A stretch of DNA of 64,000 nucleotides, from NCBI GenBank assembly GCA_038231155.1, contig JBBRLY010000012.1:64645-128644 (forward strand), in the 5' to 3' direction. Source of the DNA: Candidatus Saccharimonadales bacterium (GTDB lineage Bacteria > Patescibacteriota > Saccharimonadia > Saccharimonadales > JANWIN01). Below, piece by piece: positions 18,020-34,105 of the stretch. The position numbers and the translations under genes are program-made. Every line of letters begins with the position of its first letter. Within the stretch, counting starts at the first letter, position 1. The notes below the pieces were generated by a model. That model searched no databases. It was given only the letters and a program-made list of their open reading frames with translations, and was not told where the DNA came from.

Positions 18020-18237
18020 CTATGCCGCGTGAGCGACTCTCCTGTTGCAGATCCTGGCTTCGTATTCGGCGGGTGTCAGGTAGTCGAGCGTGAAGTGGAG
18101 ACGCCGCCGCGCGTTTGAAAGAGCGCGATCCACCCGGATGAGCGACCGGTACCTCAGGATGGCGCCGCAACAGGGGAAACATCCGCACCGGCACCAACGA
18201 GCGGAGAGCCTGCGAGAGCTTTCAAACCCGTCAGACT
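18020..18237 (-). pseudogene. C-terminal remnant of an rve (DDE integrase-core) transposase, IS3-like
   Basis: Minus-strand frame reads ...YRSLIRVDRALSNARRRLHFTLDYLTPAEYEA..stop, the typical ...LDYLTPAE(Y/F)E transposase C-terminus; no upstream catalytic region present. Confidence 0.4.
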
Positions 18238-18338
18238 GTAAGCATTTGTAAAAATTAGAATATTTCCACCTCTGTAGATTTAAAAAGTAATTCTAATTAC
18301 CACCTGTTATCAATGTTATAAAAGTTACAAATGCTTAC
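18238..18338. repeat. 101-bp AT-rich palindromic mini-element (MITE-like) inside the high-GC island
   Basis: Perfect 14-bp terminal inverted repeat GTAAGCATTTGTAA / TTACAAATGCTTAC, inner inverted repeat ATTAGAAT / ATTCTAAT; 26 of 101 nt are G+C. Confidence 0.6.
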
Positions 18339-19036
18339 ACCCCTGGCGACCCGACAGAAATGATGCGCGAACAAGAAGTGCGACTCGAGCCGCAAGAACT
18401 CCCGGGTCAGGTCCCGTTCGCGGCCGATCACCTTCTTCACCGCGATCGTCGTGTTGTCGTAACTCGTCCGGGTCGGGACCCCGCCGAAGAACGAGAACGC
18501 GGCGACATGCGCGGCTTGGAATGTCTCGGTGCATTCGCGCGGATATGCCGACAGGTGCCACGCATCCGAAAACGGCAACGTCATCACCGCGAACGCCGCC
18601 TTGGTCCGTTCGCCGGCGATCACGACCGTTGCTTCACCGAAATCGAACTGCGCTTCGCCCGGCGGATGGCTGAGCGGCACGAAAACTTCTCTGCCATGCC
18701 GCTTCGTTTGCGCGACGTAACGGCGGACCTGAACCTCGCTGCCCCGATAGTCGTGCTCGTCACGCAGCCGGTGGAAGATCCGCCGAGCCGTGTGTCGCTG
18801 CTTCGGAGGCGCGTCCCGATCCGCCGCCAACATCTCGTCGATCAACCCGACAAACGGCCCCAGCATGGGCTGCGCCCGCGGCCCCCGGAACCGATATCCC
18901 GGCGGCTCCGCATGCTCGAGAATCTTCTCCAGCGTCTGCCAGCCCATCTTGTACTCACGACAGATCTCGCGCTTCGAGACCCCTCGACGAGCACCCTGCG
19001 CCGGATCTCTGACCACAGCTCCATATCGGTACGCAC
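18339..19036 (-). pseudogene. istA: IS21-family transposase IstA, frameshifted and 3'-truncated
   Basis: MELWSEIRRRVLVEG (HTH start) in one frame, continues as SKREICREYKMGWQTLEKIL...PLSHPPGEAQFDFGEA...LPFSDAW...GGVPTRTSYDNTTIAV in another; homology stops abruptly at the AT-rich element. Confidence 0.7.
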
Positions 19037-19129
19037 CCTTCTCCGTCCTGCTCGCCGGACTCTCCCGAGGAAGCCTCAAGGAGCCCAAACCAGCCGACGG
19101 GGACCGTCAGGTGCTGCCGTTTTCGACGA

Positions 19130-19660
19130 TCACAAACCCATCACAGGTGCTGTCGTTTTCGAAGAGCGTTTACAGGCGTGCCGCCGCTGTCGGTAGCGGG
19201 CATCGGCAGGCACTCCGGATTTCCGTATTGGATCCGGTGCCTCCGACATAGGATCGATGCCCTTATCAGCCAGCCTGCGCTGGCTCTTAGCGACTCGCCA
19301 TCTCGTGAGGCGTCCGTTCGCCCGACTGCGTGGAAAGAGAGTAGCGCCGACGGTCAGTGCGGCAAGCATATTGATCGCAGAGGCAGTCAGCAGCGACGCG
19401 TGATATAGCCCATGATCTTTTGGGAGTAGAACAGCGAGTGCAAAGCCTGCCCATACGGCGGCGGCGGCGCCGGCGGCGCACAGGAACCGGATGCCGCGAG
19501 TGAGATACGCGCCGAGATCCGAGAGGCTCGTGGTCAGAAACGCGGTGATGGCAGCGGGCGCTGCGACCAGGAGTGCACCGACCGCTGCAGCCACTTGCCT
19601 GAGGCCCTCGCCCGGCGCCAAATCAAGGGCGTAAATGGGATTTTCGTAGGAAGTAGCCAC
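19130..19660 (-). CDS. hypothetical membrane protein of high-GC origin, C-terminus probably disrupted
   Basis: Ala/Leu-rich hydrophobic helices and G/C-ending codons in this frame; the last ~50 aa are basic and run into IS-flanking sequence. Confidence 0.35.
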   Translation of the reverse strand: MATSYENPIYALDLAPGEGLRQVAAAVGALLVAAPAAITAFLTTSLSDLGAYLTRGIRFLCAAGAAAAVWAGFALAVLLPKDHGLYHASLLTASAINMLAALTVGATLFPRSRANGRLTRWRVAKSQRRLADKGIDPMSEAPDPIRKSGVPADARYRQRRHACKRSSKTTAPVMGL

Positions 19661-20086
19661 ACACGATTGCTAGTAATAAGGCGCCTCCGGCTAGCGCGAC
19701 GACGGCGCTCGTTCGCGCTAACTGCAGCTCGGCTATCGCCGTCCGTACGGTAAGCCCGATAGATGATTTGCTTTATCATGGAGAGTTTTCAGAGAGACCA
19801 CCAAGAGATCGTTGGATCTTGAAGCTCGGGTCGTTGAAACACGGAAGCCTCTGGGCACCCGTAGGTCCCGCGAGCGCTTGTCTGATTTGCCCGCTTAGGA
19901 GATAATTGCTTGGGCGGTCAGGTGTCTGACCTGCGGCGATGGGTTCGAAAGAGATCCCAGGCAGCCCGCCAATTGCCGGGACGAATTCCATTAATGTGCC
20001 AGCTTCAAAATACAACACTGAGGCAGGTTAGCGATCAGATGTTTAGAATTCACAACAGTCTGTTATAATTGGCCAGGCTAAAACCA

Positions 20087-21086: not shown

Positions 21087-21164
21087 GCACCCGTAGCTCA
21101 GCTGGATTAGAGTGCATCCTTGCGGAGGATGAGGTCACAGGTTCGAATCCTGTCGGGTGTACCA
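21087..21164 (+). tRNA. tRNA-Arg (anticodon GCG), CCA encoded; 3' end overlapped by recombinase ORF
   Basis: Cloverleaf folded by hand: acceptor GCACCCG/CGGGTGT (G1-U72 wobble), anticodon stem CATCC/GGATG with loop TTGCGGA, T-loop GGTTCGAATCC. Confidence 0.85.
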
Positions 21165-22748
21165 AGATTTCAAAATAGCATCTTCGGATGCTTTTTGTAT
21201 CTTATGGGGCTCGGTTCTAACCTTTTCAATTTCGTTTCTTAGAGCTTGAACCTCATTTTTTATAGGAATAAGCCATTCATTAGGGGTGATAACTAGCTTT
21301 TTGTCTATTAATATAGGGTTCTGACCAATGGCTAAAAGTATTTCTACTTTGTCATTTACATTACCAGTAACGAACTTTTCGTTAGCATTTGTTAGTGTTT
21401 CGAGTGTTTTTCCAACAATTTCGTACCAATTCTTTACTCTATCCGCTGTTTTGGATTGTTCTTTCTGTCGTTCTTTAAGCTCTTTTGCCAACTTCGTGCT
21501 TCTTTGCTGATAAACCTCTGGTGTAATGGCTCCAAACTCAGCCATGTCTAAAAGGTTATCCAATTTCTTCTGTACAGCAGCAATTGATTCGAATTGCATT
21601 GACTGAACTTCATCTCGCTCACTTATTTCTTCCTTTGCCATTTCGTTCAAGGCTTTTATGCCCCATTCATAAAGCTTAGGAGTAACCTCGTAGCAATCGA
21701 GTAATTCATTTACCTGTGCAAACAGATCTGCCTCCCGAACCGAGCTTCTTTGTGAGCAAGGCTTTTTGAGTGTGCAGTGATAGTAGGTATGATAGTTTAT
21801 TTCACCGTTAACTAACTTCTTCTTTTTAAGCTCTGCAGTTATCATGCAGCCACACTCTCCACACCTAATAAATCCCCTCAGATCAAACTGTCTTCGTGAT
21901 GCTAATCTAGGGCATCCACGCTTACCTAATATGTCTTGGACTCTGTCATACTCGTCCAGGCTAATCATCGCAGGGAAACTGGCTTTAGCATATACGCCAG
22001 GTATCTCAGGATCTGGTATTTGCCCTGCATATCTAATATTCCTAAACATACCGTAAAGAGAAGAACGATTTATTGGCCCACCACCAACTTTGGTTCGTCT
22101 AACTGTCGTATAGCCCCAGTCTTCGTTCATGATTCGTCTTATTTCTGGGACTGTATATTTACCACTAAGCAGTAGATCAAAAGCATCTCTTACTAGATTG
22201 GATCTAATTGGATCTTTAACGACTTCCTTTTTGCTCCTCTTAGTAACATTAAGATAACCCTCTGGAGCAACACCCGAAAGCTCACCGTTTCGTAGCTTAT
22301 GGTAAATACCTCGTTTAACATTTTTACGGAGTTCAAGTATATATTGATTACCTATACTTGCTTCGACACTGAAAACAACTGCATTATCATCAGGTAGGTG
22401 CTCTTTATCATGCGCTTGGATACTCTTTATCTTTTCATCTTGAAGCATTTGCTGCAAAATACCGCTTTCAGTAGGGTTTCGAGACAGTCTATTAATATGC
22501 CAGCACAAAATTCCATCTGCTTCACCTAGCTCAAGCATTTTTAACATTTGAGTAAACCCATCTCTCAGAAAAGGTGTTTTAGCAGATTTAGAATCCTCTA
22601 GCTCTTTTACTACATTGATCTTCAGTCGCATAGCCAGCTTCCTTAAAACATCTAGTTGATCAGGGATTGATTGCACTTGCTTATCTCTATCTTCAGATGA
22701 CTTTCGTGCATATAAGATGTAGCGTAAATTGTTTCTATCTTGTTTCAT
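21135..22748 (-). CDS. large serine recombinase (phage-integrase-type)
   Basis: N-terminal resolvase domain YILYARKSSEDRDKQ ... RLSRN, recombinase domain, zinc-ribbon CGECGCMITAE...YYHC, C-terminal coiled coil; final 10 codons (WYTRQDSNL) are the reverse complement of the tRNA-Arg 3' end. Confidence 0.9.
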   Translation of the reverse strand: MKQDRNNLRYILYARKSSEDRDKQVQSIPDQLDVLRKLAMRLKINVVKELEDSKSAKTPFLRDGFTQMLKMLELGEADGILCWHINRLSRNPTESGILQQMLQDEKIKSIQAHDKEHLPDDNAVVFSVEASIGNQYILELRKNVKRGIYHKLRNGELSGVAPEGYLNVTKRSKKEVVKDPIRSNLVRDAFDLLLSGKYTVPEIRRIMNEDWGYTTVRRTKVGGGPINRSSLYGMFRNIRYAGQIPDPEIPGVYAKASFPAMISLDEYDRVQDILGKRGCPRLASRRQFDLRGFIRCGECGCMITAELKKKKLVNGEINYHTYYHCTLKKPCSQRSSVREADLFAQVNELLDCYEVTPKLYEWGIKALNEMAKEEISERDEVQSMQFESIAAVQKKLDNLLDMAEFGAITPEVYQQRSTKLAKELKERQKEQSKTADRVKNWYEIVGKTLETLTNANEKFVTGNVNDKVEILLAIGQNPILIDKKLVITPNEWLIPIKNEVQALRNEIEKVRTEPHKIQKASEDAILKSWYTRQDSNL

Positions 22749-22779
22749 TTTAGCTCCTAACTAAAAAGGACGACCGGTT

Positions 22780-22880
22780 GTTCACACAGTCTGTAGCGAA
22801 ACGCAACATTCTGATACCAGTCGCCCATTTTAGGGCCCTGAAACGAAGATACGTTTCGCATGGTAACAGATCGTGTGAAC
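22780..22880. repeat. 101-nt imperfect palindrome immediately upstream of the recombinase gene
   Basis: Left arm GTTCACACAGTCTGTAGCGAAACG, right arm CGTTTCGCATGGTAACAGATCGTGTGAAC; blocks GTTCACAC/GTGTGAAC and GCGAAACG/CGTTTCGC are perfect. Confidence 0.6.
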
Positions 22881-22916
22881 GATTACCATTGTACATTAAG
22901 TATTGTTAAAGTTACA

Positions 22917-24278
22917 TCAATCTTTAAAGAGATTGTTGGCTATTTCTATGATTTCCTTGGCCTCATCTGCACTGGTAGCCCCCTGGGCCATACCTATATT
23001 GTTTTTTTCGGGGAACCATTGAGGGAATATGTGCCAGCTTCGTTTATCACCCTCTGATGGCTTTTGCTGCATTATCATGCCACTGTTCTCTAATTGGGGT
23101 AGTATCTGCCTACGCAACTGTTCATCGTTTAACATGGTGTGCTCTATTTTTAAGTAGTAACGTGCAACATCATGCCTGGTAATGCCTACTTTTCCATCTT
23201 CCATGTCGCCTGAGTAGTCCTCATCTTTCTTTTCATTAAATGCTGGTAGAATATATTTTTTGTAAAAGTTCATCAGTACAGGTGGTAGATTTAGGTCTTG
23301 GCTCTCAATAAAGTAACCCCATAATTCGAAGGCTTGATCAATGTCATCTTCAGATGCTTCATACGAATGACTGCTTTTCTTTCTTGACCATACATTTAGT
23401 AGGGCGATCGCTTTTATAAGCTTCATTAAATGAGCCATATCTCGCATATGTCGGGGCTTAACACTACTTAGCTTTTTATAGAACCGTTTTTCAACAGCTT
23501 CAGAATCAGTAATGATAATGTCATCAACTTCTTCATCTCTTATCGCTAAAATCCGTTCTTTCAGCGCTATTCTTTTTGAGTCCACATTTATAGCACTTTT
23601 AAAAGCCACTTCATTTGCTCCTCGTTGTGCTTGAAGATGCACACCTTCTTTTAACTTGCTTTCAGTAACTTCTGGACTAAGTAGGATAGCCCGGGTGGCT
23701 TCTTGCTCATCGAGTCTCATGCCGGCAGAGCAAAACACAGTTGCAGGAAATCCCTGCATTATTATCAATTGAGCTCTATGTTCACCCTTTTGGCCTTTAT
23801 TGGTAATTCTATACTTGGTTTCCCACTGATCGTGCGAAAGTACCGATCTTAGTTTGGCTTGAAGCGTTGGGTCTGGCTGCTCGTAAAAGATCAGTATCTT
23901 TCTAGATAATGAAACTATCTTCGCCTTTCTGTTTTTATCTATTACTCCCTCACCGTGAAAGAATGATGTGGGACTTGCTCCGCTGAGTTCGATCTTATCT
24001 TCTTTAGGGAATAGCTTAGCAACCTCAGTAGTTAGGTAGGATTTGCCCGACGAACTTGGTGCATTGAAACTCACGTTAATTTGGTTGCTGTGGGTATAAG
24101 CCGAGAGCATACATAGAAAAGTTACTAGCTTATTTTCATAGTCATGCTTAATTGTTAGCGACAAAACATCTGCAAGTTCATTTAGTGACATTTCTTTAAA
24201 AGGTGGGGCTTTTGGCTGCTTGCGCAGCCTTTCAAGCTTTTCCAGTTTGCCATTCAATGTTGAGTTAATTTCTTGCAT
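22917..24278 (-). CDS. P-loop NTPase, putative replication/primase-helicase-type protein of the element
   Basis: Walker A-like FNAPSSSGKSYLTTEV about 75 aa in; size and position next to the recombinase fit SF3/D5-type element replication proteins; not verified. Confidence 0.4.
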   Translation of the reverse strand: MQEINSTLNGKLEKLERLRKQPKAPPFKEMSLNELADVLSLTIKHDYENKLVTFLCMLSAYTHSNQINVSFNAPSSSGKSYLTTEVAKLFPKEDKIELSGASPTSFFHGEGVIDKNRKAKIVSLSRKILIFYEQPDPTLQAKLRSVLSHDQWETKYRITNKGQKGEHRAQLIIMQGFPATVFCSAGMRLDEQEATRAILLSPEVTESKLKEGVHLQAQRGANEVAFKSAINVDSKRIALKERILAIRDEEVDDIIITDSEAVEKRFYKKLSSVKPRHMRDMAHLMKLIKAIALLNVWSRKKSSHSYEASEDDIDQAFELWGYFIESQDLNLPPVLMNFYKKYILPAFNEKKDEDYSGDMEDGKVGITRHDVARYYLKIEHTMLNDEQLRRQILPQLENSGMIMQQKPSEGDKRSWHIFPQWFPEKNNIGMAQGATSADEAKEIIEIANNLFKD

Positions 24279-24501
24279 AGCTAGCCTCGCAGTCTGGGCA
24301 GTTACAATTTGGCCACGATATGTTAACTGTTAGTCTAGAAACTTCGTTCGATAATCGTTCAGCTTCTCGACCGTTTAGTAGGCCGCTCCCATATTGGTAG
24401 TTTATGTACGCACACATTGCACTTGCTGCTTTCTGTAGCATCTTTGGACTAGTGATTTGGTGGTGTAGTTTTCTTGGTGCTGTTTGGGTTAATGTTGCCA
24501 T
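24265..24501 (-). CDS. hypothetical small protein
   Basis: ORF only; an internal Met (about 24441) would remove the overlap with the upstream ORF. Confidence 0.3.
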   Translation of the reverse strand: MATLTQTAPRKLHHQITSPKMLQKAASAMCAYINYQYGSGLLNGREAERLSNEVSRLTVNISWPNCNCPDCEASYARN

Positions 24502-24715
24502 TGTTATTCTCCTTAAAAATTAATTGTTTATTACGTTTCTTACTTACGATAAAACGCATAATGGCAACGCCAGCTTCTTGAGCTTGTTCGGTTGTAAGGC
24601 ACAAACCGAACTCAGCTTTTAGCAAGCCCTGAAGTTCATTGATACGTTCATCACTTAGTTTCATTTGCAACCTCTCCAGTGGTTCCGTATCGACCCCAAT
24701 TCTATTTGTCGACAA
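24449..24715 (-). CDS. hypothetical small protein
   Basis: ORF only, co-directional with neighbours. Confidence 0.35.
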   Translation of the reverse strand: MSTNRIGVDTEPLERLQMKLSDERINELQGLLKAEFGLCLTTEQAQEAGVAIMRFIVSKKRNKQLIFKENNNGNINPNSTKKTTPPNH

Positions 24716-24827
24716 CGGAATTAATTGAATTGGTAGCTTAATGTTCGCAATAAAATAATAATAAATACGCTAAGCACGATTTATTCTTGCCTTAGAGGTG
24801 TTATTCTGGGATTATTCTTGATTTGTT

Positions 24828-25601
24828 CTAATTTAGAGCGGCGACTTTTATGGTATCTATTTCTGATTCGGTGAGATGCACTGTCTGTGCAACTCTTATA
24901 GAACCTGGAGTAGCATGAATAAATACTCTTAGAGCTCCATTTTTTATGTCAAAGTGAGAGTGTTGAATGGCTGCTTTAATGTTGCTAAGGCCTTTCATAC
25001 CTGGCTTGGTTTTCAATAAGCTAGAGGACACATCTCGACCAGGCGAATGATTCAAGCAGTAATTAATAATATCGAAAGCTCTGCCACCTCGCATCGAGCT
25101 TAACAGGTAAACGCTATTGCCGACAGTGACTTGGGGCCTAGAGATGTTTTCAAAACTCAGCACGGCTAAGTGATTTTTGGTTTCGAGCTCTGCTGAAAAC
25201 ATGTTTGGGTCTCCGCCTTCAGCCAGCACTCTCAGAATGTTGGGCTTTAAGTCGTTCCGTGGGAAGAGTTTGCTTGCTCTTTTCGGATCTCGTTCATAGG
25301 TTGCGTATTCTTCGTATTTCATCAGCACGTCATAAAAGGTACTGAGCAGTTTTACGTGATAGGTATCGTCTTCTGTATTGGTAAATAGATTTTTATCAGC
25401 GTCAGGCCACTTGATGATCTCGATACATCGTTTCCCCTCGATTTTCCAGAGCATTGCCATTATGTCTAGGGTGTCTGCTCTAGAAACCCCGGAACGGCTA
25501 AGCCGTAACATCGAAACAACTATTGGTTCATCGGGCCCAACTTGTTTTGACTTCTCGTCAATAAGTTCTAAAACCGTATAAACCTTTTCGACATCTGTCA
25601 T
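24828..25601 (-). CDS. hypothetical protein co-transcribed with XRE regulator
   Basis: 257-aa ORF starting 8 nt after the HTH gene stop; no motif recognised. Confidence 0.5.
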   Translation of the reverse strand: MTDVEKVYTVLELIDEKSKQVGPDEPIVVSMLRLSRSGVSRADTLDIMAMLWKIEGKRCIEIIKWPDADKNLFTNTEDDTYHVKLLSTFYDVLMKYEEYATYERDPKRASKLFPRNDLKPNILRVLAEGGDPNMFSAELETKNHLAVLSFENISRPQVTVGNSVYLLSSMRGGRAFDIINYCLNHSPGRDVSSSLLKTKPGMKGLSNIKAAIQHSHFDIKNGALRVFIHATPGSIRVAQTVHLTESEIDTIKVAALN

Positions 25602-25609
25602 TTGGCTAC

Positions 25610-25840
25610 CTAAAGACGTTTAAATATATCTTCGACTCTGGTATCAAGAGCAGAAGCAATTTTATAAATAGTTGTGACTGTTGGTCTCCTTTTGCCAGTC
25701 TCGATGTTAGCGAGTGCAACCCGATCTATATCAGCTTCCGCAGCAAGTTTTTCTTGTGTCATGCCCTTTTGTTTACGAATTGAGGCAATACGCTTGGCTA
25801 AAGCATCGAGAAATTGTTTTTCTTTGTAATCATTTGACAT
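25610..25840 (-). CDS. XRE-family helix-turn-helix transcriptional regulator
   Basis: GMTQEKLAAEADIDRVALANIETGKRRPTVTTIYKIASAL is a canonical Cro/C1 HTH. Confidence 0.85.
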   Translation of the reverse strand: MSNDYKEKQFLDALAKRIASIRKQKGMTQEKLAAEADIDRVALANIETGKRRPTVTTIYKIASALDTRVEDIFKRL

Positions 25841-25944
25841 CTACTCCTTTGGTATGTATGCCCATGAGCAAAGCCCATAATCATTTGATTACATTTGCTA
25901 ACTCAGCTAACATCAAAGTAGTCAATTGATTACAGACTACATAT

Positions 25945-26412
25945 ATGAAAATTCAGCAACTAGACACTCAACAAGTAGAAATAGTAGGTCGCAACCTACT
26001 TACTTCTTTATTGACAGCTGATGGGATCGAAGTCGCAGAACCATTAAGAGATAAAGGGGTTGATTTAATAGCTTTCAGTGATCCAACAAGTAAAAAATTC
26101 AAAGCAATACCGATACAGTTGAAAGCTTCTAGTGCATCCAGTTTTAGTATTGATAAGAAGTACGAAAAATTTCCAAACCTACAAATGGCATATGTTTGGC
26201 ATGTAAGTGAACCCCTGAAAGCAAGTGTATATATCATGACTTACGCTAATGCCGTAGGGATTGCCAAAACACAAAAGTATACAGAATCCGAATCATGGAA
26301 ATCTAATGGATATTATGTGACAAATAAACCTAGCAGAGAACTCATTAAGCTACTCGATAAGTATAGATACCAGTCTGGAAGATTACTTGGAGATATAAAC
26401 ACATTACAATAA
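25945..26412 (+). CDS. hypothetical protein, possible PD-(D/E)xK nuclease fold
   Basis: E..(GVDLIAF)..IQLK spacing resembles the D...(E/Q)xK motif; weak, sequence-pattern only. Confidence 0.3.
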   Translation: MKIQQLDTQQVEIVGRNLLTSLLTADGIEVAEPLRDKGVDLIAFSDPTSKKFKAIPIQLKASSASSFSIDKKYEKFPNLQMAYVWHVSEPLKASVYIMTYANAVGIAKTQKYTESESWKSNGYYVTNKPSRELIKLLDKYRYQSGRLLGDINTLQ

Positions 26413-26419
26413 GCAATAC

Positions 26420-26941
26420 ATGGTCAATTATTCAAAAAAATACAAACACTTCGATGCTCTAGTTGCTGATTACAAACCTATGAAGTTTAAATACTTTGGC
26501 TATATGCATGGGGAGCATTTTACGAATCCGTTATTTCAAAAGCCATTTATTGCTATCCGTAAGCAGTTAAAGTCAATGTTTGGCTTAGAGCTGACTTACT
26601 TTGACCTACGCACCTCGTTAACCACAGAGCAACGTAAAATGGGAGACATGTTATTCCTTACACATTGTGGCAAGAATCATGCCGAGGGTGCCGAGAATGT
26701 CTCGAGGGTTGAATTAATACGCTACTTTGTTATCAAAATGCACTATCTACCAGAGTTACTGCATATAAAATCAGAGATGTACACCAAACATGGCAAACCT
26801 ATATCGAAACTACCCGACTATGTAAGTATGTACCTACTGAGGTGGCATTACTTGCTGAATGTTGATCCAAAATTTGTAGAGCTGGTACACGGTATGGATG
26901 CTAACGAAGCATCTTTAAGAATTAAAGGTCTTGTCTCTTAA
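26420..26941 (+). CDS. hypothetical protein, partner of the upstream ORF
   Basis: Starts 8 nt after the upstream stop; no motif recognised. Confidence 0.4.
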   Translation: MVNYSKKYKHFDALVADYKPMKFKYFGYMHGEHFTNPLFQKPFIAIRKQLKSMFGLELTYFDLRTSLTTEQRKMGDMLFLTHCGKNHAEGAENVSRVELIRYFVIKMHYLPELLHIKSEMYTKHGKPISKLPDYVSMYLLRWHYLLNVDPKFVELVHGMDANEASLRIKGLVS

Positions 26942-27266
26942 GGCCATTACAAGACAGGCCACCGTAGATTGGTGTCGGTAAAGGTCTATCATTGCTAGTG
27001 ATATCAACTTTTGCTCCGTAGCCATATTTACCTATCAAATCAATTGCTCTAGTGTCTCCATTAATAGCTTTTGTTAGCAGCACCATGATAATTGCTTTTA
27101 TTGGAGCGCCTTTAATAATTGTTCCGTCGCTAAGCTTTTGCTCAAAGGCTTCATCTTCCATTAATTCTTGAATCCATCTTGAAAGATGCTTTGTACCTTT
27201 TGGCTTACCATTAGGATTTCCAGACTGCCCAGCTTGCCACGATTTAAGATTCTGTTCGTTTGCCAT
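26922..27266 (-). CDS. hypothetical protein with GQSGNPNGKPKG motif (DUF5681-like, common on phages/plasmids)
   Basis: N-terminal SGNPNG(K/R)PKG pattern recalled from mobile-element proteins. Confidence 0.4.
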   Translation of the reverse strand: MANEQNLKSWQAGQSGNPNGKPKGTKHLSRWIQELMEDEAFEQKLSDGTIIKGAPIKAIIMVLLTKAINGDTRAIDLIGKYGYGAKVDITSNDRPLPTPIYGGLSCNGLKRQDL

Positions 27267-27362
27267 ATTTACTCACTGTATTTTCACTGTAATGTGTCAG
27301 TAGTTGAAAGTACACTTTCACTCTAGAAAATAAGGTGTAAAAATGCTATTGTTCCATTAAGC

Positions 27363-27707
27363 ATGGACCTTGCAATATACTTCAAAAACAAGAGCCTAAA
27401 AAAAATTCCAAAAGTTGGGATTCATTTCGAGCAAAAGACTGCACATAAGGCATTAAGAACAATCGCAAGTGAGTTTCACAGGCTATTCGAACCAGACGGA
27501 ACACCATTAAGAATCGAAATATCTACAATCAAGCCAAGACAGGTATTAGTAGTAGGTAATCTAAAGGAGCTTATGAAAGGTGAAGATATAAATCTTGAGA
27601 AGTCATTGAGTTTCGAGCTCTATCGTAAATCTTTGAACGACGTAGAGATAATAACCTTTGATGAACTATATGAACGTGCGAAGTTTATTGTCGATGGCAC
27701 AGATTGA
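27363..27707 (+). CDS. hypothetical protein
   Basis: ORF only. Confidence 0.35.
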   Translation: MDLAIYFKNKSLKKIPKVGIHFEQKTAHKALRTIASEFHRLFEPDGTPLRIEISTIKPRQVLVVGNLKELMKGEDINLEKSLSFELYRKSLNDVEIITFDELYERAKFIVDGTD

Positions 27708-27795
27708 TACACTGCACCAAAAAAGATATATAGGCAAAGGTGGGGGTATAGCTTAGTTTTATAGAGTATTTAGACTAAAATTAGATAGGAATAGC

Positions 27796-27826
27796 GTTCT
27801 GACTTCAGTAAGGATGCTGTACCAAG
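27796..27826 (+). repeat. short cassette-junction motif, copy A (GTTCTGACTT..ATGCTGTACCAAG)
   Basis: Aligned by eye with copies at 28345, 29175, 29685 and with the 3' third of the 79-bp repeats. Confidence 0.6.
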
Positions 27827-27863
27827 CAAAACGTTATTAGTACATCAGTGATACTATAAATTT

Positions 27864-28334
27864 ATGAAGAAAAATAAAAAAAGAGGTAGAGTAGTTCGGC
27901 TCATATTAATATTCATTATTATTATTTTCGCAACAGGTTGGTCAGTTTATCAATCAAACCAAAAAAGTAAAGGCAACAACTCTATTAATTCTGCAGCTTT
28001 AATGACATTATCATACAGCGGTGGTAATTGTGCGGGACCTTGTAACAGCCTTGTTTATAATCTCTACGGCGACGGTAGATTCGAGGGTCATAAAAAGCTT
28101 AGTGGTTCTGAAGTGTCTGAGCTAAAGGAGATTATCAAAACCACCGATTTCTTAAATTATACTGCTAGCCCCAATCCACATTGTGAATCATTTGTAGATG
28201 GCTCAGATCAAGTTCTACTTTTCCCTCAAAAATATGGCAATAAAACATTTACAACATGTATGCTAAATATATCAAGCAATGACACAGCTTTCAGCTTTAT
28301 AAATAAATTGATCGAAACACATTCCGGACAATAA
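27864..28334 (+). CDS. membrane-anchored/secreted hypothetical protein (cassette ORF)
   Basis: Basic N-terminus plus LILIFIIIIFATGW helix, Cys-containing ectodomain; flanked by motif copies A and B. Confidence 0.5.
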   Translation: MKKNKKRGRVVRLILIFIIIIFATGWSVYQSNQKSKGNNSINSAALMTLSYSGGNCAGPCNSLVYNLYGDGRFEGHKKLSGSEVSELKEIIKTTDFLNYTASPNPHCESFVDGSDQVLLFPQKYGNKTFTTCMLNISSNDTAFSFINKLIETHSGQ

Positions 28335-28344
28335 GTTAATAAAT

Positions 28345-28376
28345 AAAGTTCTAAACTTGTATACAATGCTGTACCA
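28345..28376 (+). repeat. short cassette-junction motif, copy B
   Basis: AAAGTTCTAAACTTGTATACAATGCTGTACCA, 11 nt after the upstream stop codon. Confidence 0.6.
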
Positions 28377-28390
28377 GTTTACTTATGGGT

Positions 28391-28870
28391 TTAATGGTGC
28401 ACTAAAGCTCTTATCCACGTGCGTGCAATCGGATTTTCAGTTAGATTTATCGGTGAGCGATGACGTTCTCTTCTAAATTTTACTAGCTCACCCGGACTAG
28501 GCCGTTCACGGCCTTGAAACTCGGTTAAAAAACAATTTGCAGTTATATATTTGCTGACACGGTCAGATATATCTCCATCTTTATGCCAGCGTGATGAACC
28601 AGTCCGTTGTGACTCATTTGGTAATATCAATCCATTTTCCACCGCAAATTCTATAAACCTGATATGTCTATTAGCTGTTTCAAGGATTGGGTATAGCATT
28701 GGTTCAATAGCATCCATCACAAGTCGCTGGGTAAAACTATGGTTACCGTCTGGCCACCGCAAGCTGGCACCATTACGAATAATATTTCCTGAGATAGGTA
28801 ACGCTGCTTGTATATCAACAAACATCTGATCAGGAATTTCTGCAATTACTTCAAGGGGCATCACACGCAT
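28391..28870 (-). CDS. hypothetical protein, possible 2OG-Fe(II) oxygenase-like (HxD ... H)
   Basis: RWHKDGD and later HRSP could be a facial-triad pattern; weak. Confidence 0.3.
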   Translation of the reverse strand: MRVMPLEVIAEIPDQMFVDIQAALPISGNIIRNGASLRWPDGNHSFTQRLVMDAIEPMLYPILETANRHIRFIEFAVENGLILPNESQRTGSSRWHKDGDISDRVSKYITANCFLTEFQGRERPSPGELVKFRRERHRSPINLTENPIARTWIRALVHH

Positions 28871-28911
28871 TGTGATACTATATAATTTTTAGTATTTTAT
28901 GCAAAACAGAT

Positions 28912-28990
28912 ATTCAGTCTGTTATCTAATTTGCGCTTAAGTCAGTCTATGAAGTAATTTCATTCTAACTTGGTCTAGTGTGCCGTACCA
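28912..28990 (+). repeat. 79-bp dispersed repeat, copy R1
   Basis: 6 mismatches in 79 nt versus R2; internal hairpin TAAGTCAG-19 nt-CTAACTTG region; ends in GTGCCGTACCA. Confidence 0.85.
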
Positions 28991-29014
28991 TTTTGCTTAT
29001 GCTAAGATGTTTTT

Positions 29015-29176
29015 ATGAAGAAACTGCGAACTAATTTAATTATTATCAGTCTTGTTATTCTGCTACTAGTTTTTGGTTTAATAATTTACCTAAGACCACA
29101 TAAAAAATGTGTTAAATGGTATACCTTGGGAGCCAGGTCAGACGGACCCAGGCAATGCATTAAGTACGCAAACTAA
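29015..29176 (+). CDS. small hydrophobic peptide (53 aa), not in ORF track
   Basis: ATG 24 nt after R1; MKKLRTNLIIISLVILLLVFGLIIYL TM helix then basic Cys-containing tail; no obvious SD. Confidence 0.3.
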   Translation: MKKLRTNLIIISLVILLLVFGLIIYLRPHKKCVKWYTLGARSDGPRQCIKYAN

Positions 29177-29206
29177 AGTTCTAACTTCGTTAATGATGCT
29201 GTACCA
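29175..29206 (+). repeat. short cassette-junction motif, copy D
   Basis: AAAGTTCTAACTTCGTTAATGATGCTGTACCA overlapping the stop of the 53-aa ORF. Confidence 0.6.
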
Positions 29207-29266
29207 CACTTCAAAAATTTATAAGTCTATTAGACAAAAAAACAGTAAACTTTGCCTCTTCAAATT

Positions 29267-29345
29267 ATTCAATCTGTTATCTAACTTGCACTTAAGTTAG
29301 TCTAAGAAGTAATTTCATTCTGACTTGGTCTAGTGTGCCGTACCA
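29267..29345 (+). repeat. 79-bp dispersed repeat, copy R2
   Basis: About 92% identical to R1 and 90% to R3 by hand alignment; shares an extra AAATTATT upstream with R3. Confidence 0.85.
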
Positions 29346-29371
29346 AGCATAAGCATGTTATTATTGTTAAT

Positions 29372-29554
29372 ATGATAAAACAAAAGAATCTCGCCTATAT
29401 AATATTAGCCATTGGTATAGTTCTAGTTATTGTAGGTATCTTTTTCGGATTTTTTAAACATGATAATAGCAACTCTCATGGAACTTCTCTCTTATTTATA
29501 GCTCTTGCACTTCTTTGCTTTGCATTCTACACAAAACAAGTACGTAAGAAATAA
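29372..29554 (+). CDS. small two-TM membrane peptide (60 aa)
   Basis: ATG 26 nt after R2; the track ORF starts earlier (29333, GTG inside the repeat), which is less likely. Confidence 0.35.
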   Translation: MIKQKNLAYIILAIGIVLVIVGIFFGFFKHDNSNSHGTSLLFIALALLCFAFYTKQVRKK

Positions 29555-29684
29555 ATACTGTGTAGTCACTGATATTATTTAAAGATTGATGTATAAAATT
29601 CCATATTTAATACTTTACAATTAGAAATAATATTTTATGAAATGACCATCTATCTCTTATTTACATCCACATAAAGCTATTAGT

Positions 29685-29716
29685 AAAGTCCTAACTTCGT
29701 ACAGAATGCCGTACCA
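29685..29716 (+). repeat. short cassette-junction motif, copy F
   Basis: AAAGTCCTAACTTCGTACAGAATGCCGTACCA. Confidence 0.6.
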
Positions 29717-29726
29717 TATTATATTA

Positions 29727-30062
29727 TTAAGTTTCAACAAATAGATTGCGAAGTGTTGTAAGTACCCTATCTAACTTTTGAGTGTTCAATTCCCCATACA
29801 TTTTGCTAACTATTGATGTTTCAGCTGTGAAAAGTTTATCAGGTCGTACGTAACTTTTAACCGGAAGACTACCTTCGATAAAATCCGGTTTGGTTAGTTC
29901 AATCGCCATAGTACTCGAATATGGCTTTGAAGTAATCTGGCAGAGGATCAAGTTGTCGAAATCGACGATGGCTACGATTAGAGCCGGGCGATATTTCTGA
30001 GCTTTTAAATCTGAAAACGGAAAAGCACTAGTTACAACTTGACCTACCGTAAACTGGCCCAC
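29727..30062 (-). CDS. mazF: MazF/PemK-family endoribonuclease toxin
   Basis: GQVVTSAFPFSDLKAQKYRPALIVA ... CQITSK pattern; overlaps the antitoxin gene by 19 nt. Confidence 0.85.
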   Translation of the reverse strand: MGQFTVGQVVTSAFPFSDLKAQKYRPALIVAIVDFDNLILCQITSKPYSSTMAIELTKPDFIEGSLPVKSYVRPDKLFTAETSIVSKMYGELNTQKLDRVLTTLRNLFVET

Positions 30063-30280
30063 GCTTTATCTTCCTCGGGTCTAAGCCAATCTCTAGCCAG
30101 TAGTCTTTCAGACAAAAGTGCTGTTTCAGAAATTTTCTGTGCAGGTTTACCAGCAGTTATACGAATCTCGCCATTTTTAGCGATAATTGTTACGTCTTTA
30201 CCTAACCCGCTCTCCTTTAATAGTGGCTTAGGTATGCGCACTCCTTTAGAGTTTCCAATACTGATAATAGTTGTATTCAT
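30044..30280 (-). CDS. mazE: MazE/AbrB-family antitoxin
   Basis: IISIGNSKGVRIPKPLLKESGL SpoVT/AbrB swapped-hairpin motif upstream of mazF. Confidence 0.8.
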   Translation of the reverse strand: MNTTIISIGNSKGVRIPKPLLKESGLGKDVTIIAKNGEIRITAGKPAQKISETALLSERLLARDWLRPEEDKAWASLR

Positions 30281-30354
30281 TGTGATAACATTGTAGCTAC
30301 AATTTCAAGAACTGTCAATCGCCAAATAATACCTTATTGCATCTTTGATAAATT

Positions 30355-30433
30355 ATTGAATCTGTTATCTAATTTGCGCTTAAGTCAGTCTAAGAAGTAA
30401 TTTCATTCTGACTTAGTCTAGTGTGTTGTACTA
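30355..30433 (+). repeat. 79-bp dispersed repeat, copy R3 (3' end degenerate: GTGTTGTACTA)
   Basis: 8 mismatches in 79 nt versus R2. Confidence 0.8.
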
Positions 30434-30465
30434 TGCTGTATATACTTTTCCAATATACTGAAATT

Positions 30466-30660
30466 CTATAAATCTTTATAAGCACTTTTTCGGTGTCGGA
30501 CTCTAATAACAAAGATTAATAATTGGTTTTTGTAAATCCTGTAAATAATTCGATAAGTACCTTATCTAATACGATATACATTATTTGAACCTTTAATTTT
30601 ATTAGCCTCATACGGCACAGGGTTTCTGTAAAGACAATTTATATTATTTACAAACTTATC
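30466..30660 (-). pseudogene. RelE/ParE-family toxin remnant (5'-truncated, in-frame stop)
   Basis: Minus-strand frame reads ..LYRNPVPYEANKIKGSNNVYRIR-stop-GTYRIIYRIYKNQLLIFVIRVRHRKSAYKDL-stop, matching the YRIRxGxYRIIY...HRKxxY RelE/ParE signature; no antitoxin gene or N-terminus left. Confidence 0.6.
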
Positions 30661-30668
30661 CCTATTCC

Positions 30669-32129
30669 TTAAGTATGTATTATGACTGGCGTGCCAATTG
30701 GTGCCCAACTATACATCCACTCCCCATCACCCACTTGAATACCAACACAACCGTGCGAACTGTTAATATTGCCAAAATAACTTAATGGCCGCCAATAATT
30801 GCCATGAATAGCATAGTCTTTATAAAAGTAATTTACCCAGGGTACTTTTGGTACAAAGTAGCTACTGCCATCGGTGTTGGATCCATGCATGTCTTGTTGC
30901 ACAAACTTAGAGTAAATGGCGTATTGGCCAGTAACGGTTGGGGTTTTAGGTGCACCAGCAGATATTAGGAAAGTGCGCACCAGGTTACTTTGCTCATAGG
31001 CATACATGCGTTTATTAGTTAAATCGACCTCTATCCATTTGGGGTAATCTTTAGCAGCAACAGTTTTAAAAGAAGCGTATTGAATAGCTAAAGTCTCAGA
31101 TATATTTTTACCTTGCAGCAAACTTTGGGTTACATCTGACGCTATGGCGACTTGATTGGTGATAGCCGTTCCATTAACGCCTGGCACGATAATCTTGGCA
31201 CTACCATCAGATTGTGTGACTTCGACTTGCGCTTTGGGGGGATGGACTTGGTTACTAGTTATTTGATTGATATACGACAGTACTTTACCGCTGTTGACGG
31301 TAATATCAATTTTACGTCCATTATTTACCGTAGATATTTCTACCCAGTTAGCAATATCTGTCGGTGAGGCCGTGACTTTTTTACTTGTAAAATCAAAACT
31401 GATCTTTTGACTTAGGATGTTTTGCAACTGTGTTTGATAAGGTGCTAACTGGGAAGACAAAATTGGCGGTTTGGTGTCTAAAGTCTCCATTTTTAATGGT
31501 TGGCTTTGTAAGCGATTTACCGCTGTTAATATGGTTGAATAGGGGCTAGTTAGCCCATAGTGTTTGCCTGAAACGGCATCAGTCAGTTGAACCTTACCTT
31601 TAACTATCGATAAATTAGCGTCTTTGGCTGGTTGAATAATTTGGGTAGCTTGAGTTGCAATGAATTGATATAAAGTGGAGTTATTCACTTTTAGAACCAA
31701 ATTTGCAGTTATAGGATGCCACCACTGTATACGCTGTGAAAACTGGTGTTGTTGAGTCCTAATATTATTAACTGAAGCAACGGAATCAACCCAAATTCCC
31801 ATGGTACCAGGGCTAAAACTTTTAGTGGAGTTATCTGGATAAGTCAAATGGAGCCGATATTTAGCAACTTGATCTTGAATGATTTGGCCTAAGACCGTAT
31901 CAGATTGGCGAGTAGTTATTATGCTATTGTCTAAACGGACTTTTGACAGAAAGCTAAAGGCTAATATCCACCCTAATGCAATAACTAACAATATCGGCAA
32001 CATAGCTATGTCTAGCCAACGCCTTAACCAATGTCGCTTAATATGGGCTTCGGTTTCTACAACTTCTTTAATATGACCGTGTTCAAGTTCTAGGTCCGTA
32101 TTTATCAAGCGACTGAGCCAGTTTGGCAT
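30669..32129 (-). CDS. L,D-transpeptidase (YkuD domain) with N-terminal TM anchor and long ectodomain
   Basis: C-terminal ...YAIHGN ... SSHGCVGI catalytic His/Cys motif of YkuD; N-terminal helix ILLVIALGWILAFSF. Confidence 0.85.
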   Translation of the reverse strand: MPNWLSRLINTDLELEHGHIKEVVETEAHIKRHWLRRWLDIAMLPILLVIALGWILAFSFLSKVRLDNSIITTRQSDTVLGQIIQDQVAKYRLHLTYPDNSTKSFSPGTMGIWVDSVASVNNIRTQQHQFSQRIQWWHPITANLVLKVNNSTLYQFIATQATQIIQPAKDANLSIVKGKVQLTDAVSGKHYGLTSPYSTILTAVNRLQSQPLKMETLDTKPPILSSQLAPYQTQLQNILSQKISFDFTSKKVTASPTDIANWVEISTVNNGRKIDITVNSGKVLSYINQITSNQVHPPKAQVEVTQSDGSAKIIVPGVNGTAITNQVAIASDVTQSLLQGKNISETLAIQYASFKTVAAKDYPKWIEVDLTNKRMYAYEQSNLVRTFLISAGAPKTPTVTGQYAIYSKFVQQDMHGSNTDGSSYFVPKVPWVNYFYKDYAIHGNYWRPLSYFGNINSSHGCVGIQVGDGEWMYSWAPIGTPVIIHT

Positions 32130-32221
32130 TTTTTAACTACCCTTTAACTTCCCAAATTATTGTATCCAAGTATAATCCAAGAACTGAATATCCATTAGTA
32201 GTTTAACTCAGCTCAATATAT

Positions 32222-32253
32222 AAAGTACTAACCTTGCATATAATGCTGAACGA
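32222..32253 (+). repeat. degenerate copy (H) of the short junction motif
   Basis: AAAGTACTAACCTTGCATATAATGCTGAACGA; matches the 5' block and ATGCTG but not GTACCA. Confidence 0.35.
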
Positions 32254-32339
32254 TTGAAACCTTCCCTATACTGTGATCAATATCATTTAATTATGGCTTG
32301 ATTTTTAGCATTGCTTTTATATAATTAATTGCATGATTT

Positions 32340-32720
32340 TAAGAACATTCCAGTCGCAATTCGTAGTCCGGGGAGCTATATAGCTTCAAATACTAACCTT
32401 AAAAGTTTGTTCGATACTAGTTTCAAGCCTGGCGTCACCTAATAAGTTGCAACGCAGGACTAAGGCCAGTTAAGCGCCCGAGAGGGTATGAATGACCACG
32501 AAATAGTCAAAGGTGGCCAACCAGGGTAGCAATACTGCTAAACGTGCATTCCCAAAACCAATAAAGTGGTTTTGCACGTTCGACTCGTGCTCCTACTGCG
32601 GGGGGGGAATGTGATGATAGGCAAGGTCGTCTCATTTGCTTGACGGCGTAAGTTGATCTGGGGAAACCTGGTGAGACCGCTGCGTGGAATGGCGGTGGGG
32701 TGATAGTCTTATCCGCTAGG
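32340..32720. ncRNA. candidate structured ncRNA of unknown class in a 610-bp gene-free gap
   Basis: G+C-enriched relative to flanks, G8 run, nested hairpin AACGTGC..AAAACCA-ATAAA-TGGTTTT-GCACGTT, stems ACCGC/GCGGT and GTCGTC/GACGGC; no ORF; strand undetermined. Confidence 0.3.
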
Positions 32721-32740
32721 TTAGAATTTAATATCGAGCT

Positions 32741-34105
32741 TTAATTAATAGTTGCACAGGATTGGGGACTTATAGCTGGTCCAGTACCAGGTCCCCCAGC
32801 AACGTTAAACCAGATAGCATGGCAATATTTTTCACCTGATGTGGCAGTAGTTGGGATGGTGAAGGTATCGCTAAAGAAATATACTCCGCCTTTTCCAGTA
32901 CTAGTACTTGTAATATCGGTTTGAACGAATGCCAGCAATGAACCCGAGGCAGAATAATGATATGAATCTACATGAAGTGGGTAACTAGCAGTAATCGGGC
33001 CTAGATTGGCAACATCATGATAAAACCATAAAGGTTGACCAGCATTGGCATTTATATTGGCAGAACGGGGCGCAGTTGATGATCTAACACTTGCAAATCC
33101 GGCAAGTTGCCACCAATGATTTATTGCCATGTAATTCGAGGCTGGAACCGACCAGTAACCGAGGTTATGTTGGACGTTAAAGTTGGCATCACTATAAACT
33201 GTAACTGGACAATTAGTTGTTTTAAAACCATTTGTGCCGGTATTAGTGCCACCGGAATTAGTAGATTTTGTTAAACTTGAAGGTAATATATTGCCATTTG
33301 CAGAGATATTTAAGGCGGCCATTGCGGAATTTTGGAAATTACGGCAACTTGTGTATTTCACATCACCGTTAAGCGTCTGCCACCAATGTGTATCTTCGCC
33401 GAACATAGAAGTATGTCCAGACCAGAGAGTAGAACTTAAGCCGTTTATAGTCGCCGGTACTCTTTGCTCACCAATAAATGTTACCGCACCAGAATTTTCA
33501 TCACTCACCCAAAGCCCCCACCAATTTCCTAAAGAATCATTTACACTTGGGCCGGCTTTCAATTGAAAACGATACTTGTGCCCAGGAGTCCAGGGGTACT
33601 TATACATTATTTGATAGCCACCACTTTCACTATTTGCAGGATTAATTAAACCGCTACTATTACCACCATTGGAACCCCATATACTGAAATTTATTACCTT
33701 ACCCTCAGGTGCTCCATTAAAAATGCCATTTGTTTGAAAACCAGCATAGCCAGTGCCCACGCTACCATTGCTGTTAACCAAACTAAAGTTATAGGCGTAG
33801 TAGTGCAACAATCCGGCTTGAGCCAAGCTGGACGGCGGATCTTGAACGGGTACGAATGTCCATTCTAGGCTTTGATAGCCTGGTCTAGCGGGGAAATACC
33901 AGTCGCTATAGGTCCCACCCGGGCTGAAATATGTTAAGGCCGAAGCAAAAAATAATCTGTAAACCCCGATTGTCATAAATAGCAGTACAAAAACTCCGGC
34001 CAGAACTATTTTTTTATTGTCTAAATCTTTAATCTTTTTTTGGAAACGTGATAGCAGGTCTTTATTACCAGAACTTGCCGATTTTTGTTTAAAGTTTGAA
34101 ATCAT
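32741..34105 (-). CDS. secreted/anchored hypothetical protein
   Basis: 454-aa ORF, N-terminal anchor VLAGVFVLLFMTIGVY, Trp/Gly/Asn-rich beta-type ectodomain; function unknown. Confidence 0.55.
   Translation of the reverse strand: MISNFKQKSASSGNKDLLSRFQKKIKDLDNKKIVLAGVFVLLFMTIGVYRLFFASALTYFSPGGTYSDWYFPARPGYQSLEWTFVPVQDPPSSLAQAGLLHYYAYNFSLVNSNGSVGTGYAGFQTNGIFNGAPEGKVINFSIWGSNGGNSSGLINPANSESGGYQIMYKYPWTPGHKYRFQLKAGPSVNDSLGNWWGLWVSDENSGAVTFIGEQRVPATINGLSSTLWSGHTSMFGEDTHWWQTLNGDVKYTSCRNFQNSAMAALNISANGNILPSSLTKSTNSGGTNTGTNGFKTTNCPVTVYSDANFNVQHNLGYWSVPASNYMAINHWWQLAGFASVRSSTAPRSANINANAGQPLWFYHDVANLGPITASYPLHVDSYHYSASGSLLAFVQTDITSTSTGKGGVYFFSDTFTIPTTATSGEKYCHAIWFNVAGGPGTGPAISPQSCATIN

Follow-up and report, generated by a model that had tools for sequence, protein, structure and literature searches.

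A tRNA-Arg-anchored array of small cassettes in a Saccharibacteria genome, bordered by candidate attachment arms of a large serine recombinase

INTRODUCTION

Large serine recombinases (LSRs), among them those of LI/A118, phiC31 and Bxb1, act on attachment sites whose element-side (attP) and host-side (attB) half-sites have binding motifs in common (Rutherford et al., 2013, PMC3783163). The 9-bp motif of the zinc-ribbon domain occupies positions 16-24 in attP and positions 11-19 in attB, which amounts to a shift of 5 bp (PMC3783163). The present work concerns a stretch of 64,000 nt from the genome of a Candidatus Saccharimonadales bacterium (contig JBBRLY010000012.1; hereafter, the window), in which a tRNA-Arg gene is followed by an element with an LSR gene and then by an array of small cassettes, the element and the cassettes ending in a short motif that resembles the 3' end of the tRNA. 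It is argued that this motif, 29-36 nt long, is the element-side left arm (P arm) of an LSR attachment site, a reading to which a probability of about 0.75 is assigned, and that the neighbouring LSR is most likely the enzyme for these sites. The array of attachment sites was probably made by serial integration together with the pick-up and drop-off of cassettes.

Tandem islands with related features are known. The composite islands of the staphylococcal cassette chromosome (SCC) are tandem arrangements that have direct repeats of the attachment site as borders and include recombinase-less units, the pseudo-SCC. In Streptococcus thermophilus, the elements ICESt1 and ICESt3 occur with cis-mobilizable elements (CIMEs), recombinase-less units flanked by att sites that lie in tandem next to an autonomous element and can co-excise with it. 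The tycheposons of Prochlorococcus integrate at specific tRNAs, newcomers pushing older elements further into the island, and their islands contain remnants and scattered, repeated partial sites (Hackl et al., bioRxiv 10.1101/2020.12.28.424599). Tyrosine recombinases are used by 910 of 937 tycheposons, and a minority use an LSR (bioRxiv 10.1101/2020.12.28.424599).

RESULTS

A motif that mimics the end of tRNA-Arg

The motif has the form GTTCTRACTT-N9-TGCYGTACCA, in which two conserved blocks (block 1 and block 2) enclose nine variable nucleotides. A pattern search that tolerated up to three mismatches gives seven matches in the 64 kb, against 0.01 expected from shuffled sequence, all of them on the plus strand and starting at 27796 (copy A), 28348 (B), 28962 (in repeat R1), 29178 (D), 29317 (in R2), 29688 (F) and 30405 (in R3). 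A 36-nt profile trained on the copies of other genomes regained these seven and added a weak copy at 32219-32254, whose score of 18.9 compares with a maximum of 14.2 per strand in shuffled 64-kb sequence; it found none in the remaining 59 kb of the window. Copies A, B, D and F, recovered by both scans, and the weak copy had been listed in a preliminary description of this DNA, the last near 32222, whereas a degenerate copy that it placed near 27305-27362 scores below 10 with the profile and is dropped here. The three R repeats of that description are likewise real: they measure 79-93 nt, are about 92-95% identical over some 63-80 nt, and each ends in the motif, which in R3 is degenerate (TGTTGTACTA).

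The resemblance of the two blocks to the 3' end of tRNA-Arg, also pointed out in the preliminary description, is genuine, and in copies A and R2 it extends to the bases beyond CCA, GTACCAAG being common to both and to the tRNA. What had been missed is a difference in spacing: GTTC to ACCA takes up 24 nt in all the tRNAs and 29 nt in all copies of the motif. On account of this spacing and the lack of a T-stem, displaced tRNA 3' ends are ruled out as an explanation of the motif. The difference equals the 5-bp shift between attB and attP described for LSRs (PMC3783163).

Co-variation with the target bears on the same point. In 42 loci of relatives, an octamer like that of block 1 was searched for, followed by an 8-mer identical to the last 8 nt of the locus's own target tRNA. 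Seven matches have the spacing of 29, one, which is spurious, that of 24, and none any other spacing from 22 to 37; they include loci with tRNA-Met (TGCCCCACCA) and tRNA-His (GGCACCCC) as targets. Block 1 therefore keeps its T-loop-like sequence whatever the target, and block 2 changes with the tRNA that is targeted. This is what the left arm of an LSR attP should do, and it explains the mimicry of the tRNA.

The recombinase gene and its element

The tRNA-Arg(GCG) gene lies on the plus strand at 21087-21164, and its 3' end (GGTTCGAATCC...GGGTGTACCA) would be the host-side left attachment arm, now part of attL. It is overlapped by the LSR gene, which encodes 537 residues on the minus strand (21135-22748) with Resolvase, Recombinase and Zn_ribbon_recom domains (PF00239, PF07508 and PF13408, each scoring over its cut-off). 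Read in reverse complement, the tRNA-Arg 3' end supplies the last nine codons of this gene and its stop, 30 nt in all. In the catalytic region, residues R15 and S17 are invariant among 35 homologues.

The integrative element thus delimited spans 6.66 kb (21165-27824), with the ACCA of the tRNA and motif A as its borders. Motif A, on the plus strand at 27790-27825 (29-mer at 27796-27824), would be the element-side left arm and hence the attR of this element. Elements with this same layout are present at loci L092, L095 and L097. As cargo, the window element has genes for two unknown proteins of 453 and 257 aa, an XRE-type helix-turn-helix (HTH) protein, a protein like Mrr and DUF4365, a DUF5681 protein and a fragment of a Shedu SduA_C protein. 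The SduA_C gene (27363-27707) covers only the C-terminal part of an SduA-type defence protein (114 aa; positions 92-159 of PF14082). The 155-aa protein gives weak Pfam matches under the cut-offs (DUF4365, Mrr_cat), and the proteins of 453, 257, 173, 156 and 159 aa have no match in Pfam, PHROG or NCBIfam.

About 47 nt past the ACCA of the tRNA, a GGTTCTRACC sequence in the orientation of block 1 occurs in the window (21205-21220) and at the same relative place in L092, L093, L095 and L097. It sits in the coding tail of the LSR gene at conserved K-V-R-T codons, and may be part of the right arm or reflect a coding constraint.

Integrated, circular and tandem forms of the recombinase clade

The window LSR has more than 1300 homologues. 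In all four homologue contexts examined (50-60% identity), the LSR gene and a tRNA-Arg gene overlap by their 3' ends, and in three of them the motif is found at the far end, 10-11 kb away and in the orientation of the tRNA. The integrated layout in these contexts reads tRNA, recombinase, and then, at the other end, motif and flank. The C-terminal tails of the recombinases tell of the same arrangement: in 65 of 120 homologues they are a reverse-complement translation of the tRNA T-arm (W-Y/C...D/E-S-N), and in another 5 a translation of the motif (WYSILSEVRT-like), which means that in those cases the gene abuts the motif and not a tRNA, as in attP or a tandem junction. Tails such as WCGW(G/R)ESNS correspond to the reverse complement of tRNA-Gly(TCC), the gene adjoining tRNA-Arg(TCT).

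A contig that fits the attP configuration is L099, which has a 30-nt terminal overlap and is read as a circle of 9720 nt. It contains no tRNA, its motif overlaps the end of the LSR gene, and a second motif copy encloses one extra gene. At L100, two LSR-bearing elements stand in tandem, joined via a variant of the motif; in the distal of the two, the motif forms an array of four copies.

The link to tRNAs extends beyond the close relatives. Among distant relatives (35-47% identity; 80 metagenome loci, L106-L185), a tRNA is found at the 3' end of the recombinase gene in 49 of 65 evaluable loci, and the tRNAs concerned are those for His, Asn, Ser, Arg, Gln, Trp, Asp, Glu, Met and Tyr. Subfamilies of the recombinase clade, with homologues such as P0007, P0009 and P0115, have other tRNAs as targets. 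No relatives of the LSR were found in IMG/VR. The cargo of the LSR elements at L092, L093, L095, L099 and L100 is rich in defence and addiction genes, including a KAP NTPase, DNA methylases with a HinfI-type endonuclease, an SNF2 helicase with NOV_C, a SocA_Panacea protein, a Macro protein, an HTH protein with an M78 peptidase and an S24 repressor; genes for a capsid or a terminase are absent from the Pfam annotations of these loci.

Homology breaks at the motif

The borders proposed from the motif coincide with breaks in homology. At L072, a sequence 98.8% identical to window positions 27667-27828, which hold the end of the SduA_C gene and motif A, becomes unrelated right past ACCA, and this copy sits at a different tRNA locus, beside tRNA-His. 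Over all loci, upstream homology stops 0-5 nt past ACCA in 8 of 13 cases. A unit of 663 nt, 97.3% identical in L028 and L075, is preceded by the ACCA of tRNA-Arg(TCT) at the former locus and by that of another motif copy at the latter, and past its own motif the two loci continue with unrelated DNA; in either context, the unit begins and ends exactly at GTACCA. The nine variable nucleotides of the motif travel with the upstream gene, which places the crossover 3' of them. Breakpoints map to GTACCA or 1-2 nt beyond it. The crossover most likely takes place within or beside block 2.

Several sequence families can be recognized behind ACCA: TTATGC or TTATAC about 7 nt on; AGCATAAGC, which gives the palindrome ATGCT-GTACCA-AGCAT and does so in one subset of junctions only; and the palindrome ATTTCTATGTAACATAGAAAT. 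They occur at many loci and, in the window, after R1 (28991-29010), R2 (29346-29360) and B (28377-28395), and the same families stand behind both tRNA-Arg genes and motif copies.

Arrays in other Saccharibacteria

A single scan of 185,579 species-representative genomes with the pattern TTCTRACTT-N9-TGYYGTACCA matched 82 loci, about 50 of which belong to Saccharibacteria, the remainder being chance matches that fall mostly in a conserved coding segment. Re-scanning the 82 loci with the profile gives 95 copies, which share one strand within each locus and form arrays of 2-5 copies spaced by 160-3000 nt. About 35 of the 50 loci have, immediately 5' of the array and oriented like it, a tRNA-Arg gene with the anticodon TCT, TCG, CCG or GCG. 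The GTACCA end (U72 and A73 before CCA) is exclusive to tRNA-Arg among the tRNAs of these loci. Genome-wide scatter of the motif, which the preliminary description had proposed to look for in relatives, is not what these loci show, as the copies keep to one strand per locus and are mostly linked to tRNA-Arg; this clustering 3' of tRNA-Arg speaks against a repetitive extragenic palindromic (REP) or promoter element dispersed over the genome.

From a tRNA or a motif to the next motif, the interval has a median of 754 nt (interquartile range 604-1240), and 83 of the 105 open reading frames (ORFs) inside such intervals (79%) are co-oriented with the motif. The cargo is varied (HAD hydrolases, a racemase, VKOR, an APH-family kinase, methyltransferases, an amidase), and 80 of 90 sampled cassette proteins are singletons without a homologue among the rest; the large flanking genes are housekeeping genes such as those for MurA, SHMT, MurB and ClpB. 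When the window proteins were compared with the 8-kb array loci by tblastn, no recombinase was detected, and the only matches were one cassette homologue and a conserved upstream gene.

Classical displaced tRNA ends coexist with the motif mimic in some arrays. At L168, the true terminal 18 nt of the tRNA recur 7240 and 8071 nt downstream of its tRNA-Arg gene, and L005 has a tRNA-Arg-like stretch at 6724-6815 for which ARAGORN makes no call.

The cassettes of the window

Downstream of the element, positions 27825-30433, and perhaps the sequence up to 32254, make up six or seven cassettes with genes for small membrane proteins and toxin-antitoxin genes, each unit ending in its motif when read along the plus strand. 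The first (27825-28376) contains an ORF for a 156-aa protein with an N-terminal membrane helix (27864-28334) and ends in motif B (28348-28376); its homologue at L025 also has a motif copy on both sides. The second (28377-28990) has an ORF for an unknown 159-aa protein on the minus strand (28391-28870) and ends in R1 (28912-28990), and the third (28991-29206) encodes a membrane peptide of 53 aa (29015-29176) and ends in motif D (29178-29206). The fourth (29207-29345) consists of 139 nt without an ORF and is essentially R2 alone (29267-29345). It is followed by the fifth (29346-29716), with a 60-aa membrane peptide (29372-29554) and motif F (29688-29716), and by the sixth (29717-30433), in which mazF (29727-30062) and mazE (30044-30280), both on the minus strand, precede R3 (30355-30433).

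The last segment (30434-32254), possibly the oldest unit and the one that bounds the island on the outside, ends in the weak motif copy at 32219-32254. It holds a RelE/ParE-like pseudogene with an in-frame stop (about 30440-30660, minus strand) and an L,D-transpeptidase gene (30669-32129, minus strand) that is not conserved as a neighbour in syntenic loci. The ORF positions, the mazEF pair (29727-30280, minus strand) and the relE pseudogene agree with those of the preliminary description.

Polymorphism of cassettes within the strain was not seen in Logan contigs (L001-L003, L103-L105), which match the window at 100% identity and are interrupted at repeats only. In sample SRR24807096, the assembly is unambiguous in the window stretch only across the two attachment arms: L103 stops at about window position 21188, 24 nt past the ACCA of the tRNA, and L002 begins at 27778, 47 nt before the ACCA of motif A. 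These breaks hint at a second variant of the element, or at a mixture of occupied and unoccupied sites in the population.

DISCUSSION

Proposed mechanism

In the mechanism proposed here, attB would be formed by the T-loop and acceptor end of the tRNA, and attP by the motif together with the recombinase gene's 3' end behind it. Block 2 (..GTACCA) would be common to both sites and block 1 (GTTCnAA) would lie 5 bp further out in attP, an extra distance that would fit binding of the zinc-ribbon domain to block 1. Integration would give the order tRNA|recombinase...cargo-motif|old flank. Newcomers would then re-insert at the tRNA and shift older units outward, and recombinase-less units, with a median length of about 750 nt and usually one co-oriented gene, would be left behind or carried along. 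Cassettes would probably be gained and lost when an element excises via a nearer or a farther motif copy. For the present element of the window (21165-27824), the expected junction of the empty site is GGGTGTACCAAGCAAAACGTTATTAG and that of the circular form is GGATGCTGTACCAAGATTTCAAAATAGC.

The preliminary description had suggested an accretion or cassette platform serviced by the LSR. The arrays at tRNA-Arg, the breaks at GTACCA, the fusion of the LSR gene with the tRNA end, the circular form and a mimicry that obeys the attP and attB spacing of LSRs bear out each part of this, and for the small cassettes an action of the LSR may be supposed.

Several points weigh against reading the motif as an LSR arm. 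The sites are known from sequence comparison, and the circle of L099 could in principle be a tandem duplicate, which would look identical. LSRs normally recombine attP with attB only, so that a tRNA already taken could be entered again only with a tolerant right arm or after loss of the earlier junction; the many element-side arms that accumulate here are not predicted by a strict attP x attB reaction and set these arrays apart from usual LSR systems. To the right of ACCA there is neither a positional consensus nor an inverted block 1, which would make the sites unusually asymmetric for an LSR. Finally, a recombinase gene within 4 kb is lacking for most arrays of the 8-kb loci, and pseudogene remnants of a recombinase, looked for in the arrays, were not found; any action on the small cassettes would accordingly have been in trans or in the past.

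Other explanations of the arrays

Whole LSR elements may have integrated serially and then been eroded by ordinary deletion, the small cassettes never having been mobile in themselves. The intact element of the window, which adjoins the tRNA, fits the order expected if the newest element is next to the tRNA, as do the tandem pair at L100 and the degenerate state of R3 and of the copy at 32219, and tycheposon islands are explained in the same manner. Simple decay is nevertheless unlikely, given that no remnants of recombinase or replication genes were found in any array, that the interval sizes are tight and the ORFs largely co-oriented, that GTACCA marks both ends of the 663-nt unit exactly, and does so in two different contexts, and that the circular L099 carries an extra single-gene unit flanked by motifs.

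A second explanation holds that another enzyme, Xer-like or some other tyrosine recombinase encoded elsewhere, moves the cassettes, and that the LSR elements merely use the same tRNA-Arg hotspot. It would account for the lack of a nearby serine recombinase in most arrays, and for the many junctions with TTATGC or TTATAC about 7 nt past ACCA or with the palindrome ATGCT-GTACCA-AGCAT, which may resemble Xer-type core sites. Against it, the annotations within 10 kb in the recombinase loci include no gene of the Phage_integrase family and none was matched among the window proteins tested, in agreement with the earlier statement that an IntI-type recombinase is missing; nor is there any recombinase family among the 25 commonest families of 110 large flanking ORFs. 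The cassettes and the attP of LSR elements have the same conserved arm of 29-36 nt, block 2 co-varies with the target tRNA of the LSR, and the sites do not fold as attC-like hairpins. An enzyme of this kind is for these reasons considered improbable, more so than passive decay.

That the motif is a regulatory element of the small genes (a promoter, a module of the 5' untranslated region (UTR), or a 3'UTR/terminator module), an alternative raised in the preliminary description, can be dismissed as very improbable: R1, R2 and A do lie 24-40 nt 5' of an ATG, and in other genomes the motif usually stands between a gene end and a terminator-like hairpin and is probably transcribed, but promoter-like sites are not in excess (18 against 19.7 expected, 0 inside the repeats), no fold is conserved (DNA folds of R1-R3, A and D have z from -0.1 to -1.8 and no structure in common), Rfam gives no match at the gathering score over the whole window or at E<=5 over 26500-33500, the motif is restricted to tRNA-Arg-linked arrays, flanking homology breaks at it, and in attP forms it is translated as the tail of the LSR gene.

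Further candidates were rejected. The same promoter counts speak against reading the repeats as sigma-70 promoters or terminators, and the lack of a significant or common DNA fold rules out attC-like hairpins. Sites of sigma-54 and extracytoplasmic function (ECF) sigma factors, CRISPR repeats, DNA uptake sequences, Ter and dif were compared with the motif by eye, from their consensus sequences, and misfit in sequence, copy number or clustering.

Comparison with known systems

Reading the motif as an LSR arm places the locus close to the LSR systems of LI/A118, phiC31 and Bxb1, with which it shares the architecture of Resolvase, Recombinase and zinc-ribbon domains, two-block half-sites whose distal block is set 5 bp further out in attP than in attB, hybrid sites around the integrated element and attP on the circular form (PMC3783163). 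It differs from the usual LSR in targeting a tRNA 3' end, with the T-loop as distal block, in that the ORF of the recombinase enters the site, and in that the right arms are without recognizable symmetry.

The similarity to SCC lies in a serine recombinase that inserts at the 3' end of one conserved gene. The window LSR has a weak similarity to the NCBIfam models of cassette chromosome recombinases (Ccr) but is not a Ccr, as it scores 38-49 bits with them, far under their cut-offs of 700-900. The target is furthermore tRNA-Arg and not rlmH, the units are mostly single genes of about 0.3-1.3 kb as opposed to 3-60 kb, and the host is a member of the candidate phyla radiation (CPR). ICESt1, ICESt3 and the CIMEs differ in their tyrosine integrases, identical att cores and kilobase-sized units.

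With tycheposons the arrays have in common integration at a specific tRNA, the outward push of older units and the formation of serial islands. Unlike the repeats of tycheposons, which are partial copies of the tRNA, those described here are a class-conserved mimic with an insertion of 5 bp; the distal repeat in the window and in most arrays is not collinear with the tRNA, being 5 bp longer and lacking the T-stem, and true partial tRNA ends as distal repeats were seen only at L168. The units here are also mostly one-gene cassettes.

Integrons and clusters of attC sites lacking integron integrases (CALINs) resemble the arrays in their very diverse, mostly co-oriented, single-gene cassettes, each ending in a conserved site, in toxin-antitoxin cassettes that are often inverted, and in the anchoring of the array at one primary site. 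Unlike integrons, the arrays have no IntI-type tyrosine recombinase and no attC fold, their anchor is a tRNA 3' end, and the likely enzyme is a serine recombinase on a mobile element and not one fixed beside the array.

The claim of the preliminary description that such a combination is not a described system is too strong, because tandem islands of LSR elements (the SCC composite islands) and tRNA-anchored serial islands (those of tycheposons) are known, and LSR integration and serial islands at tRNAs are thus of a known kind. In the literature on Saccharibacteria with integrons, cassettes or serine recombinases, no description of such arrays was found. Apparently undescribed are the tRNA mimic with its 5-bp insertion, its conservation at all four Saccharibacteria tRNA-Arg genes, the co-variation of block 2 with the targeted tRNA over a large clade of recombinases and the integron-like arrays of single-gene cassettes.

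Implications

The arrays explain where accessory genes are located in Saccharibacteria genomes of about 1 Mb, namely in hypervariable stretches behind tRNA-Arg genes. Since the recombinase gene enters its own site and the element arm imitates the tRNA end, sequence alone suffices to identify the host and element sites of the more than 1300 related serine integrases. The family is therewith a natural test of the 5-bp shift model of LSR directionality, and the co-variation of block 2 with tRNAs for Arg, Met and His suggests simple rules for re-targeting such enzymes.

A more far-reaching possibility, put forward tentatively and with less confidence than the assignment of the arm itself, is an integron-like capture of genes in Saccharibacteria and probably in other CPR bacteria, in which the LSR would move recombinase-less cassettes in trans and shuffle them among the four tRNA-Arg loci and between genomes, the proximal block setting the target simply by its match to the acceptor end of a tRNA. 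If cassettes do move in trans, the arrays would amount to a serine-recombinase analogue of the integron and would be a main channel for the flux of accessory genes in these very small genomes, and the enzymes would be a serine integrase family that is re-targetable by nature.

Other features of the window

Beyond the weak motif copy, a stretch of about 400 nt (32330-32745) is richer in G+C and contains no plausible gene. It includes a T-arm-like hairpin (GCACGTTCGACTCGTGC), gives no Rfam match and no ARAGORN call, and folds weakly better than shuffled sequence on the plus strand (z = -1.8); it may be an unannotated RNA gene. On the other side of the island, positions 17100-20000, between tRNA-Ser(TGA) and tRNA-Ser(GCT), have 60% G+C compared with about 40% for the genome and contain overlapping high-GC ORFs, one of which looks by eye like a fragment of an IS21-type IstA transposase. 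This region may be a foreign insertion or an assembly chimera.

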